The translations under genes and the position numbers were made by a program. This document shows positions 15,718-20,261 of a stretch of 37,941 bases of DNA, in pieces. Every line of letters begins with the position of its first letter. The stretch's first letter is position 1. The stretch is from Methanomicrobiales archaeon (lineage in GTDB: Archaea > Halobacteriota > Methanomicrobia > Methanomicrobiales > JACTUA01): positions 1-37,941 of the forward strand of contig JAJRDA010000003.1 of NCBI GenBank assembly GCA_028678665.1, written 5' to 3'. The notes below the pieces were generated by a model that saw only the letters and a list, made by a program, of their open reading frames with translations, was not told the origin of the DNA and ran no database searches.

Positions 15718-16221
15718 TTATTTTGTGGGCTGGACCGTCTTTGCCCCACGGAGCATTGTGATCTTCCCGGTCCGGATCAGCTCCTTCACCCCGAACTGGC
15801 GGAGGAGCTTCTCCAGCGCATCGATCTTCCCGGGGTCACCTGCCACCTGGAGCACCACGGTCTTTGCACCCACGTCCACGATCTGCGCGCGGAAGATGGA
15901 GGCGATCTGCATCACCTCCGAGCGGGAGGAGCCGGGTTCCGCGTTCACCTTGATGAGGGCCAGCTCCCGATCCACGATCTCGCTCTCCGTGATATCGGAG
16001 ACCTTGATGACATCGATCAGCTTGTTCAGCTGCTTCATCACCTGTTCGACCTGTGCGTCGTCGCCGATAACGACGATGGTCATCCGGCTCATGCCGGGGA
16101 GCTCACTCGTTCCCACGGCCAGCGACTCGATGTTGAATCCCCGCCTGGCAAAGAGCCCGGAGACCCGGGTGAGGACGCCCGCCCGGTTCTCCACAAGGAC
16201 GGAAAGGGTATGGGCCTTCAT
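15718..16221 (-). CDS. ilvN: Acetolactate synthase small (regulatory) subunit
   Basis: LSVLVENRAGVLTRVSGLFARRGFNIESLAVG and QLNKLIDVIKV ACT domain. Confidence 0.97.
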   Translation of the reverse strand: MKAHTLSVLVENRAGVLTRVSGLFARRGFNIESLAVGTSELPGMSRMTIVVIGDDAQVEQVMKQLNKLIDVIKVSDITESEIVDRELALIKVNAEPGSSRSEVMQIASIFRAQIVDVGAKTVVLQVAGDPGKIDALEKLLRQFGVKELIRTGKITMLRGAKTVQPTK

Positions 16222-17966
16222 GCGGCCTTCCTCCCGGGCCTGAAGGTGACATCGCCCTCTTCCGCGGCTGCCAGCTCCAGTTCCCGCTCCGGCACGACGT
16301 GCCCACCGATCATCTCGTTGATGGCGGCCCCCGCCGGCACCATGGGGAAGACGTTCTCCTCCCGCTCGATGCGGACGTCCAGGAGGAAGGGGCCGTCGGT
16401 TTCAATCATCGTGCGGAGGGCCGAGGGGACCTCCTCGCACTGCTCCACCCGGATCCCGTCAATGCCGTAGGCCTTCGCAATGCCCACGAAGTCGACGGGG
16501 GGAAGTTCCGTGTAGGAGTACCGGTGGTCGTAGAAGAGCTCCTGCCACTGCCGCACCATGCCCAGGAACATGTTGTTCAGGATCACGACCTTCACCGGGA
16601 TATTATTGGCAGCCACCGTCCCCAGTTCCTGGATGTTCATCTGGAAAGAGCCGTCACCGGCGATGTCCACCACGGTCTCGTCCGGCCGGGCGAAGTGGGC
16701 CCCGATGGCGGCAGGGAACCCGTAGCCCATCGTGCCGAGACCGCCGGACGAGAGCCAGGACCGGGGTTTCCGGAAGCAGTACCACTGGGCGGTCCACATC
16801 TGGTTCTGCCCCACCTCGGAGACGATGATCCCCTCGCCCTTCAGCAGGTTCGAGAGCTCCTGGATGACGTACTGCGGGCGGAGGCACCCGTCGCTCTTGT
16901 AGGAGAGCGGGTGCTTGCGCATCCATGCCCGGATCCGGGTGAGCCATTGCTTCCGGTCATCGCGCTTTTTCAGCCGGTTGAGCATCACCTGCAGCACCGA
17001 CCGCACGTCGCCGACAATCGGGACATCCACCTTCTTGTTCTTCCCGATCTCGGCCGGGTCGATGTCCACGTGGATGATCTGCGCGTGGGGGGCAAAGGTC
17101 GGGAGCTTTCCCGTGACGCGGTCGTCAAACCTGACACCCAGGGCAATGAGCAGGTCGCTCTCGGTCACGGCATAGTTGGCGTAAACGGTCCCGTGCATGC
17201 CCAGCATCCCCAGGTTCAGGGGGTGGTCGCAGGGAATGGAACCCAGTCCCATCAGCGTGGTCGTGACCGGGCAGAGCAGGCGCTCGGCGAGCTGGACCAT
17301 CTCTCCCGATGCCTCGGAAGTGATAATCCCCCCGCCGGCATAGATCACCGGCCGTTCCGCCTTCTCGATCAGCTCGATGGCCTTGTCGATCTGCCGCGTG
17401 TGTCCTTTCAGGGTGGGCTGGTAGCCACGGAGATGCACCTTCTCAGGAAGGGGGGGCACCTCTTCGATCTGGCCGGCGGTGACGTCCTTGGGCAGGTCGA
17501 CGAGCACGGGGCCCGGCCTCCCGGTACGGGCGATGAAGAACGCCTCCTGGACCACCCGGTCCACGTCCACCGTCCGCTTGACGAGATAGCTGTGCTTGGT
17601 GATGGGCAGGGTGATGCCCGTGATATCCGCTTCCTGGAAGGCATCGTTGCCCAGGAGACTGGTGGGTACCTGGCCGGTGAGGGCCACCATCGGGACCGAG
17701 TCCATGTAGGCGGTGGCGATGCCTGTCACCAGGTTGCAGGCGCCGGGGCCTGAGGTGGCCATGCAGACGCCCACGCGGCCGCTGGCCCGGGCGTACCCGT
17801 CCGCCGCGTGGGCGGCCGCCTGCTCGTGGCGTACGAGGATGTGCCGGATCGGGGAATCGTAGAGTTCGTCGTAGACTGGCAGGATCACTCCGCCGGGGTA
17901 GCCGAAGATGGTGTCGACTCCCTCCCGCTGGAGCCCCTCAACGAGTATCTTTGCTCCGGTCTTCAT
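16218..17966 (-). CDS. ilvB: Acetolactate synthase large subunit
   Basis: FGYPGG, RHEQAAAHAADGYAR, VGQNQMW and GDGSFQMN...NN TPP motif; start MKTGAK. Confidence 0.97.
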   Translation of the reverse strand: MKTGAKILVEGLQREGVDTIFGYPGGVILPVYDELYDSPIRHILVRHEQAAAHAADGYARASGRVGVCMATSGPGACNLVTGIATAYMDSVPMVALTGQVPTSLLGNDAFQEADITGITLPITKHSYLVKRTVDVDRVVQEAFFIARTGRPGPVLVDLPKDVTAGQIEEVPPLPEKVHLRGYQPTLKGHTRQIDKAIELIEKAERPVIYAGGGIITSEASGEMVQLAERLLCPVTTTLMGLGSIPCDHPLNLGMLGMHGTVYANYAVTESDLLIALGVRFDDRVTGKLPTFAPHAQIIHVDIDPAEIGKNKKVDVPIVGDVRSVLQVMLNRLKKRDDRKQWLTRIRAWMRKHPLSYKSDGCLRPQYVIQELSNLLKGEGIIVSEVGQNQMWTAQWYCFRKPRSWLSSGGLGTMGYGFPAAIGAHFARPDETVVDIAGDGSFQMNIQELGTVAANNIPVKVVILNNMFLGMVRQWQELFYDHRYSYTELPPVDFVGIAKAYGIDGIRVEQCEEVPSALRTMIETDGPFLLDVRIEREENVFPMVPAGAAINEMIGGHVVPERELELAAAEEGDVTFRPGRKAA

Positions 17967-19449
17967 TCTCCTCACCCAGCAGCCGGTTCATGCCCGCAAT
18001 GACTGCTTCGACGCTGGCCATGATGATGTCGGTGCGGGCTCCGCGAGACGTAAGTATCTTTCCGTCCTTACTTAACCTTACCGTAACCTCGACGAGGGCG
18101 TCCGTCCCGCCCCGGATGGCGTCCACGTGGTACTCCTCCAGGCGGATGTCCCCGGCCGCGGCAACGGTGCGGCGGAGCGCCTCGACCGCGGCATCGACAG
18201 GACCGTTTCCCGTCGATGCACCGGTGACATCCTTCCCGTTCACGACCAGGGTCACCGACGCGGTGGGCACCACGTGGCTCCCCGAGACCACCGTGAACTG
18301 CTTGAGAGAGAGGGCAGGGGTGAATGCGAGACCCAGCACCGCCTCGGCGATGGCCATGAGATCGGCATCGGTGACGCGTTTCCCCTGGTCGCCCAGGGCT
18401 TTGATTCGTGCCACGATCTCCCTGAGCTGTTTCTCGTCAGCGGTGTAGTGCATCTCGTCCAGGGCTGCCTGGACGGACGCGGAGCCGGAGTGCTTGCCCA
18501 GCACGATCCGCCGGCGGCGGCCCACGAGATCCGGCGTGATGGGCTCGTAGGTCCGGGAGTCCCGGAGGATCCCGTGGGCATGGATCCCGCTCTCGTGGGT
18601 GAAGGCCATCTCGCCCACGATGGCCTTATTGGTAGGCAGGGGGACGCCGGTGAGCCGGGATACCAGCGTGGAAAGGTGGTAGAGCTCCTGGGTACGGATG
18701 CCGGTCCGGTACCCGTACAGCACCTCCAGTGCCATGACCAGCTCCTCAAACGCGGTGTTCCCGGCCCGCTCCCCCAGGCCGTTCACCGTGGTATGGGCGC
18801 AGGTGGCCCCTGCCTTCAGGGCAGCGAGCGTGTTGGCCATCCCCACCCCCAGGTCGTCATGGCAGTGGATGGAGAGCGGGGCCAGGGCCGCGAGCGGTGG
18901 CATCATCTCTACCGTCCGTTCAGGGGTCAGGATCCCCACCGTATCGCAGAAGCAGAGCCGGTCCGCTCCCCGACGGACGCCCTCGGCAAAGATCTCCCGG
19001 AGGAACGCCTGGTCCGCCCGGGAGGCATCCTCGCCGGAGAGCTCCACGATGAGCCCCCGCTCCTTCGCGTGCTCCACCGCGCTCCACGCCATCTGGCATA
19101 CCTGGTCCCTGCTCTTCCGGAGCTTCTTCTGGATGTGGAGATCGCTCACCGGGACGACCAGGTGGACCGAATCAACCCCGCAGTCCGCGGCCTGGTCGAT
19201 GTCCTCCCGGAGGGCACGGACATACGTGCAGATCTCGGCGGAGAGCCCTGCACCTGCAATGAGGCGGATGGCCTCCCGTTCTCCCTCCGACGCGGCCACT
19301 GAACCGGCCTCGACGACGTGGACACCCACATCGGCAAGTTTCGTGGCGATCTCGAGCTTTCCGGACGGCGTGAGCGAGACACCCGGTGTCTGTTCGCCGT
19401 CACGCAGGGTGGTGTCAAAAAAGCGGATTCCTTCAGCGAATAAAACAAT
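17938..19449 (-). CDS. cimA: (R)-citramalate synthase; 5' end lacks a canonical in-frame start codon
   Basis: The frame stays open to 19452 and reads (G)IVLFAEGIRFFDTTLRDGEQTPGVSL. SVHLVVP, GLIVELSGEDASR, HCHDDLG and HESGIH match archaeal CimA-type DRE-TIM enzymes; the gene lies upstream of ilvBN. Confidence 0.85.
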   Translation of the reverse strand: MVLFAEGIRFFDTTLRDGEQTPGVSLTPSGKLEIATKLADVGVHVVEAGSVAASEGEREAIRLIAGAGLSAEICTYVRALREDIDQAADCGVDSVHLVVPVSDLHIQKKLRKSRDQVCQMAWSAVEHAKERGLIVELSGEDASRADQAFLREIFAEGVRRGADRLCFCDTVGILTPERTVEMMPPLAALAPLSIHCHDDLGVGMANTLAALKAGATCAHTTVNGLGERAGNTAFEELVMALEVLYGYRTGIRTQELYHLSTLVSRLTGVPLPTNKAIVGEMAFTHESGIHAHGILRDSRTYEPITPDLVGRRRRIVLGKHSGSASVQAALDEMHYTADEKQLREIVARIKALGDQGKRVTDADLMAIAEAVLGLAFTPALSLKQFTVVSGSHVVPTASVTLVVNGKDVTGASTGNGPVDAAVEALRRTVAAAGDIRLEEYHVDAIRGGTDALVEVTVRLSKDGKILTSRGARTDIIMASVEAVIAGMNRLLGEENEDRSKDTR

Positions 19450-19456
19450 CCCTCAT
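19433..19456 (-). other. 7-codon upstream ORF (MRDCFIR*) overlapping the cimA 5' end out of frame
   Basis: ATG AGG GAT TGT TTT ATT CGC TGA; first ATG downstream of the TATA box; cimA is in the +1 frame. Confidence 0.7.
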
Positions 19457-19488
19457 GGTGTGCACCGGAAAGTAGTGGTGGAAGATCG

Positions 19489-19496
19489 TATTTAAA
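19489..19496 (-). promoter_or_regulatory. TATA box of the cimA-ilvB-ilvN operon
   Basis: TTTAAATA, 32 nt upstream of the uORF ATG, in an otherwise GC-rich context. Confidence 0.7.
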
Positions 19497-19592
19497 GATT
19501 GAGGAACGGCATGTCCCGTTTGGATCTCCATCGTTTGGAGGGATAAGAGATCCTGAGAATGCGCTGATCCCGGTTGCGGAGAAAAAGGGGGT

Positions 19593-20261
19593 TCAGGGGG
19601 CCGGTGCCGGGGCGGGACCGGCACTGTCATAGAGCAGGGTGGTGTAGCGTGCACCGAACAGTGCCAGGGGAACACCGAGGAACATCTGGATGAGCCACCC
19701 GATCAGGGGAATCATGCCGATGATGGCCAGGATGAAGGCGAGGACCATGACAACGATGATAAAGATGATGAGTGCCAGGAGGTAGCTGCCCCAGCCGATC
19801 TTCCCGATGTGAGCCAGGATCGCACTGATGTTGAAGGCCTCACCGAATTTATCCGTGCGGGCAAACCGCACTTCCGCAATCACGAGGATAAGTATCGTGA
19901 GGATAAGCACGATGATGGCAAGGAGAATCCCTCCGGCAATGCCAGCCCACATGCCCGCACTCAGGGAGCCTTCAGCTACCGCCGTGATGATGGCAGTCCC
20001 TACGGTCAGGAAGAAGATGGCAAGGAACGGGATAAGGTAGATCAGACAGATGATCAGGAGTTTGATCCCGTCAACCAGGAGCTTCACCCAGTCAGTGAGC
20101 TCCGGGGCAGGCTTGATACCCCGGTAGACCTGCATCTGGTAACCAATCATGAGCGGGAAGAGGATACTGCAGACAAGAAGCAGGATCCAGCGGACCCATT
20201 TCCCCCAGACAGCCTCGACCGCGTACTCGTAGGAATCACCCAGCGCTTTACCTATATCCAT
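19593..20261 (-). CDS. DUF4013 family membrane protein
   Basis: MDIGKALGDSYEYA..WGKWVRW, GYQMQVYRG..PAPEL.DW..L.VDG and IGW..Y motifs. Confidence 0.85.
   Translation of the reverse strand: MDIGKALGDSYEYAVEAVWGKWVRWILLLVCSILFPLMIGYQMQVYRGIKPAPELTDWVKLLVDGIKLLIICLIYLIPFLAIFFLTVGTAIITAVAEGSLSAGMWAGIAGGILLAIIVLILTILILVIAEVRFARTDKFGEAFNISAILAHIGKIGWGSYLLALIIFIIVVMVLAFILAIIGMIPLIGWLIQMFLGVPLALFGARYTTLLYDSAGPAPAPAP

Follow-up and report, generated by a model that had tools for sequence, protein, structure and literature searches.

The first 37,941 nucleotides of contig JAJRDA010000003.1 (GenBank assembly GCA_028678665.1) of a Methanomicrobiales archaeon, hereafter the window, contain a cimA-like gene of the citramalate/isopropylmalate synthase family that heads an operon with ilvB and ilvN and lacks a usable start codon. 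In its place, the gene is preceded by a minute upstream open reading frame (uORF) in another frame, and this layout recurs in relatives and in the leuA-like paralog. The explanation that best accounts for it, with a probability of about 0.55 judged from comparative sequence evidence, is a starvation-triggered +1 ribosomal frameshift at an NUU codon followed by an Ile or Leu codon. All coordinates below are window positions, and the features lie on the minus strand.

The leader is compact. A TATA-like box (TTTAAATA, 19489..19496), the predicted promoter of a leader/cimA-ilvBN transcript, is followed by a Shine-Dalgarno (SD)-like GGTG (19463..19466) that stands 6 nt 5' of the uORF ATG AGG GAT TGT TTT ATT CGC TGA (MRDCFIR*, 19433..19456; ATG at 19456-19454, TTT at 19444-19442, ATT at 19441-19439 and TGA at 19435-19433). 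Aligned relatives carry a TTTATATA-like block at the same distance as this TATA-like box, and the gap from GGTG to ATG is 6-9 nt in most Methanomicrobiales leaders. The synthase frame is +1 to the uORF ATG; it begins GGG ATT GTT TTA TTC and runs through CGC TTT TTT GAC ACC ACC (GIVLFAEGIRFFDTTLRDGEQ). The open frame, including its stop, spans 17938..19452 (504 codons stop to stop, P0001) and is closed on its 5' side by a TGA (19453..19455) that overlaps the uORF start as ATGA, an overlap present in most relatives. Its first in-frame ATG, GTG or TTG is GTG 19329, 3' of the codons for DTTLRDGEQ (19390..19416), the N-terminal motif conserved across the synthase family. A change from the uORF frame into the enzyme frame would fall between the enzyme-frame TGA and the uORF TGA, in an overlap of 19436..19452; the corresponding interval is narrower in relatives in which the uORF stop directly follows the core (CTT CTT TGA in G037, TTT TTA TAA in G209). 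That core is the dicodon TTT ATT (Phe-Ile, 19439..19444), which forms near-invariant columns in alignment A1 and supplies the proposed P-site and hungry A-site codons.

We infer that translation is initiated at the SD-led AUG (19456) and first yields M-R-D-C-F. With charged Ile-tRNA plentiful, AUU and CGC would be read, translation would stop at UGA, and a heptapeptide would be released without any enzyme being made. With Ile-tRNA scarce, the A site would stand empty at AUU and the ribosome would shift +1 there. The peptidyl-tRNA-Phe could re-pair from UUU to UUA, or an incoming Phe-tRNA could bind UUC out of frame, and we regard this Ty3-like out-of-frame entry and P-site re-pairing as equally possible. 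Translation would then proceed through F-A-E-G-I-R-F-F-D-T-T-L-R-D-G-E-Q and on into CimA, and the overlapping downstream ilvB and ilvN would probably be co-expressed through translational coupling. In the leuA-like paralog, a Leu codon in the A site would play the corresponding part.

The leader is conserved throughout the order. Orthologs were searched for in 40 relatives and then in 150 genomes of the class, all of which are assigned to the Methanomicrobiales, and were found in 41/41 and 144/151 genomes, respectively, counting the genome of the window (G000). From these, 55 loci were fetched, two of which lay too near a contig end, leaving 53 usable. An ATG-started uORF is present in all 53, with the consensus M-[S/R/T]-[D/E]-[C/R]-F-I-x(-x)-stop, and the distance from its ATG to the D codon of the catalytic motif is 37, 40, 43, 52 or 55 nt, without exception of the form 3n+1. 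The enzyme frame has no ATG, GTG or TTG before DTT in 26 of the 53 loci. Every insertion or deletion in the stretch from the core to DTT has a length divisible by 3, and where the ATG sits further upstream (L008 and families f14 and f23) it is still in frame with GAT-xxx-TTT-ATT. The same leader was found in 10/10 further loci of family f3. Among these 63 loci of the order, the sixth uORF codon is Ile (ATT or ATC) in 62; the exception, genome G026, has CTT. The leader concerned (L028, family f3, genus g12; TAC TTT CTT) is the sole cimA-type leader with a Leu codon. As a separate observation on family f3, its cimA and leuA genes are divergent neighbours, about 290 nt apart.

A phylum-wide sample yielded an ortholog at E<=1e-150 in 96 of 121 genomes, and 40 of the 5' ends were fetched. 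The motif (A/G)TG-A-GGG-ATY-GYT-TTA-TTY, with the uORF-frame core GAT-YGY-TTT-ATT, or a variant with the ATG a few codons upstream and in frame, is present in 26/40 of these loci from other families (f7, 10; f10, 4; f14, 5; f16, 3; f20, 2; f23, 2), and none of the 26 has a canonical in-frame start. The remaining 14, more distant loci (f8, f15, f17, f11, f12, f18 and f25) have an ordinary ATG start, which in f11 and f18 sits exactly at the codon that follows the TGA in the present gene (f18: M-V-A-L-F-K-G-I-R-F-F-D-T-T). In alignment A1, which holds 43 leaders, the GAT and TTATT columns are nearly invariant. Haloarchaeal cimA-type leaders have GAY CGN TTT ATT in 2/9 cases. In six of the nine haloarchaeal cimA-type genes (alignment A4: L154, L156-L159 and L161), an upstream block of about 45 nt, GAGGATAGAGGAAGTCG..GC....CGGCTGG.CG.GAAATTC, replaces the F-I leader; this block may be a structured RNA or a binding site.

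The paralog provides a second instance of the device with a different codon. The genome of the window encodes a leuA-like protein (P0002; G000:C94:5507-7080, minus strand; L096, L122) of 518 codons that is 45% identical to the cimA-like protein and scores higher on LeuA models (672 versus 608 bits). Its leader has a TATA box and then ATG...GGG TAT TGT CTT CTT CAC CCC TAG, and its enzyme frame (...GGT ATT GTC TTC TTC...) is again +1 to the uORF and without a canonical start. In the order, an ATG uORF in frame with an invariant YTT-CTT, with the enzyme frame always +1, was found for this paralog in 25/25 genomes, among them those of family f3 that carry an insertion of 9-12 nt. The paralog of family f14 reads ATG AGG GAT CGT TTT TTA C in 9/9 loci, next to ...AAT CGT TTT ATT in the cimA-type gene of the same family; that of f19 has TTT TTG (2/2), and haloarchaeal leuA2-type genes have CG(A/G) GTT CTT C in 17/17. 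As read from these leaders, NUU is followed by an Ile codon in citramalate-type genes and by a Leu codon in isopropylmalate-type genes. The use of three synonymous Leu codons (CTT, TTA and TTG) shows that the encoded amino acid, as read in the uORF frame, is what has been preserved, and Leu in the leuA-like leader is what an amino-acid-sensing mechanism predicts. A third paralog (aksA/nifV-like, G000:C16) has no such leader and an ordinary SD-ATG start.

Substitutions, counted by hand for each frame, differ on the two sides of the core. On the 5' side, they are silent in the uORF and radical for the enzyme frame (I>T, V>A); in genus g9, TAT>TAC and TGT>TGC turn the enzyme-frame G-I-V into R-T-A, and haloarchaea use CGA and CGG, which are synonymous in the uORF frame. 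On the 3' side, it is the enzyme frame that takes up synonymous changes (Thr ACG/ACA/ACT; Leu TTA/CTG; Ser TCC/AGC), which are non-synonymous for the uORF. The selected reading frame thus appears to switch at the core. In the paralog, the linker from the core to DTT is conserved as protein (N-A-R-K-N; F-F-Q-G-T-L) and changes length only in threes, and uORF stops lie anywhere from directly after the core (G037, G209) to 14 codons later. The NUU-AUY or NUU-Leu core occupies invariant or near-invariant columns in alignments A1, A3, A5 and A6. The genomes of the order and of haloarchaea are taken to be GC-rich, yet TTA, TTT and ATT are kept throughout. In these alignments, the leaders therefore seem to combine two hallmarks of +1 recoding: an upstream zero-frame ORF with its own initiation signals in front of a +1 enzyme ORF without a start, and a short overlap with a shift-prone codon pair whose nucleotides are conserved beyond coding needs.

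Every proposed P-site codon has the form NUU, which makes the codon in the +1 frame UUN. With anticodons assumed, re-pairing after a +1 slip would be perfect for UUU-UUA/UUG (T6 run) and UUU-CUU and isoenergetic for CUU-CUU-C with a GAG anticodon; by inspection, under the same assumption, it is 2/3 for UUU-AUU and GUU-CUU. An SD-like purine tract (GAGGG, AGGGGG or GAAGG) lies 5-6 nt 5' of the core in many leaders. Several observations weigh against a frameshift. In cimA, a slip from UUU to UUA would set G against A at the wobble position, and in family f7 the P-site codon is AUU (AUU-AUU), which re-pairs poorly; the details of the slip therefore stay conjectural. The purine tract is not universal (ACA variants occur), and its spacing of 5-6 nt differs from that in prfB. 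Hungry-codon shifts measured in Escherichia coli are inefficient. At the uORF start, CTG replaces ATG/GTG in 2/10 loci of family f7. The loci of the order beyond the 26 without a start do have a canonical in-frame one, either a GTG overlapping the ATG (ATGAGTG) or, in genus g3, an ATG before RFFDTT, and the leuA of family f3 likewise has a canonical in-frame ATG. As a side observation, the two CTG-bearing loci of f7 (L067, L090) keep TGAGGGATT and the ATT ATT core.

The most serious rival, which we consider unlikely though deserving of attention, is that CimA begins at a non-AUG codon, the in-frame AUU at 19449 (codon 2 of the enzyme frame, 19447..19449) or AUC or GUG in relatives, with the AUG uORF as a competing or regulatory decoy that shares its ribosome-binding site. 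This codon is invariantly ATT or ATC in every cimA-type lineage without GTG and varies (AGT, AAT, ATG) where GTG is present, as an AUY start predicts. Enzyme codon 3, 5' of the core, is always hydrophobic (V/A/I/F), with the overlapping uORF codon always NNY. Families f18, f11 and f17 have a normal ATG precisely at the neighbouring codon, and the M-V-A-L-F of f18 indicates that translation of the enzyme frame may already be under way 5' of the core. Moreover, the NCBI proteins of relatives (P0003, P0051 and P0052) begin M-VLF at this very position. What counts against such a start is its context and its reach. GGTG is 13 nt from the ATT, compared with 6 nt from the ATG, and the G-rich tract abuts the ATT without a spacer. 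In genus g9, the leuA-type leader CGT ACT GCC TTC TTC has neither AUY nor a canonical start, yet its uORF keeps Y-C-L-L through synonymous changes. A ribosome paused at the core would cover the AUY 8 nt upstream, so that starvation would repress the enzyme, the wrong regulatory sign. Nor does this start explain the choice of Ile or Leu, the latter in three synonymous forms, in the uORF codon. Termination at the uORF stop followed by reinitiation at ATC 19428-19426 (ATG in g3), giving M-R-F-F-D-T-T, is improbable. It draws on the in-frame ATG of genus g3, 1 nt after the uORF stop (TGA-A-ATG), on the codon four before D, which is usually ATC, ATT, CTG, GTN or ATG, and on one nr record that begins MRFFDTT (P0078). 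That codon, however, is CCA in L017, L024 and L027 and AGC in L015, and the uORF runs for 12-20 codons, past DTTLRDG, in f7 and several other lineages; in addition, a core-DTT linker that varies only in threes, and in the paralog is conserved as protein, indicates that the linker is translated in the enzyme frame.

We give still less credence to an earlier +1 shift at AGG-G (19453-19450) directly after initiation, in which tRNA-Arg(CCU) would re-pair on GGG to give M-(R/G)-I-V-L-F. Such a shift would account for the protein-like conservation of I-V-L-F, and A-GGG is widespread (the window's own genome, f7, f10, f16 and f20, with AGA-AGG in f14); however, large clades have AGT or ACA there, where re-pairing is impossible, f23 has TGG and L015 has TGT, and the Ile/Leu codon rule is left unexplained. 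It is highly improbable that the block acts as a structured RNA, a riboswitch or an operator in the DNA and that its ORF features are incidental. Its nucleotide conservation exceeds that of the catalytic-motif codons, and its distance from the TATA box, 35-55 nt on the downstream side, is one at which repressors in archaea often bind. Against this, RNAalifold found no conserved pairs among 22 leaders and Rfam (evalue mode, 19250-19650) returned no match apart from two chance-level hits (E ~9), and an operator needs neither an in-frame ATG nor a 3n+1 rule nor the synonymous replacement of Leu codons (CTT/TTA/TTG). An assembly error or a pseudogene would be suggested by the way gene callers shorten the gene to 463 aa without DTTLRDGEQ (P0004). 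So far as sequences can tell, this we discount almost entirely, and an assembly error is rejected on the strength of independent contigs and recurrence in relatives. The bases were compared with Logan contigs of four runs from three studies, and none shows a frame-changing indel at the leader. Record 6 of X10 spans 19289-19466 with one substitution and no gaps, record 19 of X5 spans 19304-19472 with nine substitutions and no gaps, and record 5 of X1 is identical over 19440-19469. Record 15 of X2, from a related population in a wetland run, has lost 3 nt at 19429 and shows G>C just 3' of the uORF stop (19426-19431); a deletion of this size keeps the frame. X10 is labelled metatranscriptomic and flagged as probably DNA, and no weight is given to the point at which its contig ends (19466). 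The layout is, furthermore, present in all 53 loci, including closed single-contig genomes, and the gene is otherwise intact.

The frameshift is the simplest account that covers all lineages, and we lean towards it on comparative grounds: it would accommodate the 3n+1 relation, the SD-led AUG, the missing enzyme-frame start, the switch of the selected frame and, above all, the paralog-specific codon. A sequence-only reading of the window had proposed that the gene lacks a usable start, that the uORF MRDCFIR* is genuine and that the rest of the gene is intact. All three hold: the frame is closed by TGA 19455-19453 with no ATG, GTG or TTG before DTTLRDGEQ, the uORF reads as described with its ATG at a 3n+1 distance far beyond chance, and the NCBIfam match runs over residues 7-493. 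The same reading had asked whether other cimA 5' regions carry an out-of-frame ATG with TTT-AT(T/C), and they do, in the order and in the 26 loci of other families. It had further supposed that Ile scarcity drives a +1 slip into cimA. The comparative side of that idea stands (the SD-led uORF, the constant +1 relation, Ile in 62/63 loci and Leu in the paralog); the slip itself is a hypothesis, with the AUU start at 19449 as its rival. Orthologs with a normal in-frame ATG, which the reading had named as a refutation, do occur in the 14 distant loci and, before RFFDTT, in genus g3, and 26/53 loci of the order are without a canonical start. Three of its particulars have been dropped. The slippery UUU(U) stretch does not persist as a run among relatives (T3 only in TGC TTT, ATT ATT in f7), the Ile-Val-Leu opening, taken as a sign of the end products, is a by-product of dual-coded nucleotides and a coincidence of the overlap, and CTG 19407 is not viable, as it lies inside DTTLRDGEQ and offers no useful start.

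The gene encodes a LeuA/CimA-type synthase, with a TIM-barrel domain bearing DTTLRDGEQ and a C-terminal LeuA_dimer regulatory domain. NCBIfam NF002085 matches with 608 bits (cut-off 517, E 1e-182) and TIGR02090 with 507 bits (cut-off 485), and the homologs carry Pfam PF00682, PF22617 and PF08502. Homologs are named differently, D-citramalate synthase by JGI and 2-isopropylmalate synthase by NCBI; indirect indications that the enzyme is CimA rather than LeuA are the JGI name, the higher LeuA score of the paralog and the Ile codon of the leader. Public gene calls for the family (P0003-P0078) also disagree on the N-terminus. They include forms of 463 (among them P0004), 466 and 458 aa without DTTLRDGEQ, NCBI entries that take ATT or ATC as the initiating Met (P0003 begins MVLFADGIRFFDTT), the MRFFDTT form and one that begins MSGNIRFF.

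Downstream, ilvB (acetolactate synthase large subunit, 16218..17975) probably starts at ATG 17966, overlapping the cimA 3' end, and is followed by ilvN (small subunit, 15718..16221). The sequence GGTGAGGAG precedes this ATG, which lies inside the last cimA codons, and the ilvB start has the same GGTG-N6-ATG layout as the leader; the start contexts of six genes were read by eye. As the ilvB start lies within the cimA end, translation of ilvBN may be coupled to that of cimA. Upstream, a 222-codon ORF (19593-20261, minus strand) has no NCBIfam match at E<=1e-10. A T6 run (TTT TTT, Phe-Phe, 19417..19422) lies just 5' of DTT; it is T5-6 within the order and is not found in other families, where TTT CTG, TTC TTT or TTG TTG replaces it, and a reading of it as an oligo-T terminator at the RFF codons was given up as a universal feature on this ground. 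Also dropped were transcriptional slippage on the T run of the leader, which is only T4, and T3 in TGC TTT variants; a K-turn or box C-D reading of ATGAGTGAT...CTGA, in which CTGA is not conserved; and the inverted repeat GGATT...AATCC, which is not conserved in relatives.

A mechanistic parallel is bacterial prfB (release factor RF2), which shares with the proposed mechanism a short zero-frame ORF and a +1 shift on an NUU P-site codon while the A site awaits a limiting factor, a purine-rich SD-like tract a few nucleotides upstream, and a feedback in which a scarce product leads to a shift and thus to more product. In prfB, the P-site codon is CUU and the SD-like tract is spaced by 3 nt. Here, the A site would hold a sense codon (Ile or Leu) instead of a stop, so that the sensed quantity would be charged tRNA rather than release factor; the SD-like tract is not universal and is 5-6 nt away, and the system is archaeal. 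Hungry-codon frameshifting and the Ty1 site CUU-AGG-C share with the proposed mechanism a slow A-site sense codon that promotes a +1 slip and a P-site tRNA that re-pairs on UUN, but the cases on record are either artefacts of laboratory starvation or retrotransposons whose expression depends on a rare tRNA. Bacterial attenuation at ilvL, leuL and trpL also relies on a short leader ORF with end-product codons at which pausing turns the genes on, and the present leaders do carry codons for the regulating amino acids, Ile in the cimA type and Leu in the leuA type. They differ in having one or two regulatory codons instead of a run and in a leader that runs out of frame into a structural gene devoid of its own start; of terminator and antiterminator hairpins, there is no sign among the 22 leaders. 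Archaea are not known to use leader-peptide attenuation or T-boxes, and among the papers listed by a literature search, none reports an archaeal leader peptide. The AUU-initiated infC of E. coli resembles the present gene in the in-frame AUU or AUC at the expected N-terminus, where NCBI places the start in relatives; it differs in that a suitably spaced SD is lacking here, a strong AUG stands 7 nt upstream in another frame, and the parallel fails for some leuA-type leaders.

The start-codon problem behind this leader has been met before. In the part of their paper available to us, Pfeiffer & Dyall-Smith 2021 (PMC8305020) list the start of haloarchaeal leuA2 (HVO_1510) as an open issue, report leuA2 peptides that map 5' of the earliest canonical Met, propose either an atypical CTG start or slippage of ribosomes that began at an out-of-frame ATG, and speculate that leucine must be absent for the gene to be translated; the mention in the sequence-only reading of start-codon problems in haloarchaeal orthologs is thereby borne out. 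The haloarchaeal gene belongs to the same family and has the same leader architecture, with an out-of-frame ATG uORF +1 to an enzyme frame that often has no canonical start. PMC8305020, as far as its main text goes, covers haloarchaeal leuA2 only and gives no shift site, whereas the gene studied here is the cimA-like paralog of a methanogen. A literature search for HVO_1510 returned this paper only, and among our searches on the topic it alone bears on the point. Neither the archaeal recoding review PMC8211752 and the GeneTack survey PMC3711429 nor the available part of the 2016 frameshifting review PMC5009743 mentions isopropylmalate, citramalate or leuA, and the Methanosarcina mazei Ribo-seq paper PMC11456600, its supplementary small-ORF tables aside, does not mention citramalate, isopropylmalate or frameshift. 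According to the same part of PMC5009743, no natural example is known of hungry-codon frameshifting that yields a starvation-specific trans-frame protein. What the present alignments appear to add is a defined core dicodon, an Ile-versus-Leu rule across paralogs, a distribution over the phylum, and the extension to cimA and to methanogens.

We would give about even odds to the broader proposal drawn from these comparisons, namely that the leader is an ancient, phylum-wide archaeal translational attenuator in which one hungry codon in a mini-ORF, Ile for cimA and Leu for leuA, gates a +1 shift into the first enzyme of the pathway. The means by which archaea adjust the synthesis of branched-chain amino acids to need are still largely an open question. 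At present, hundreds of cimA and leuA genes carry faulty annotations of at least three mutually incompatible kinds (a truncated product lacking the catalytic motif, an ATT or ATC start, or a later start). If the proposal is true, the published open annotation issue in Haloferax would be resolved. The leader would be the first +1 recoding site of cellular genes to be conserved from methanogens to haloarchaea, an addition to a very short archaeal list, and the first natural hungry-codon frameshifting to serve as metabolic feedback. It would provide these archaea with a simple mechanism for sensing tRNA charging, in which the level of charged tRNA directly sets the synthesis of the enzyme and, via coupling, also that of ilvBN.

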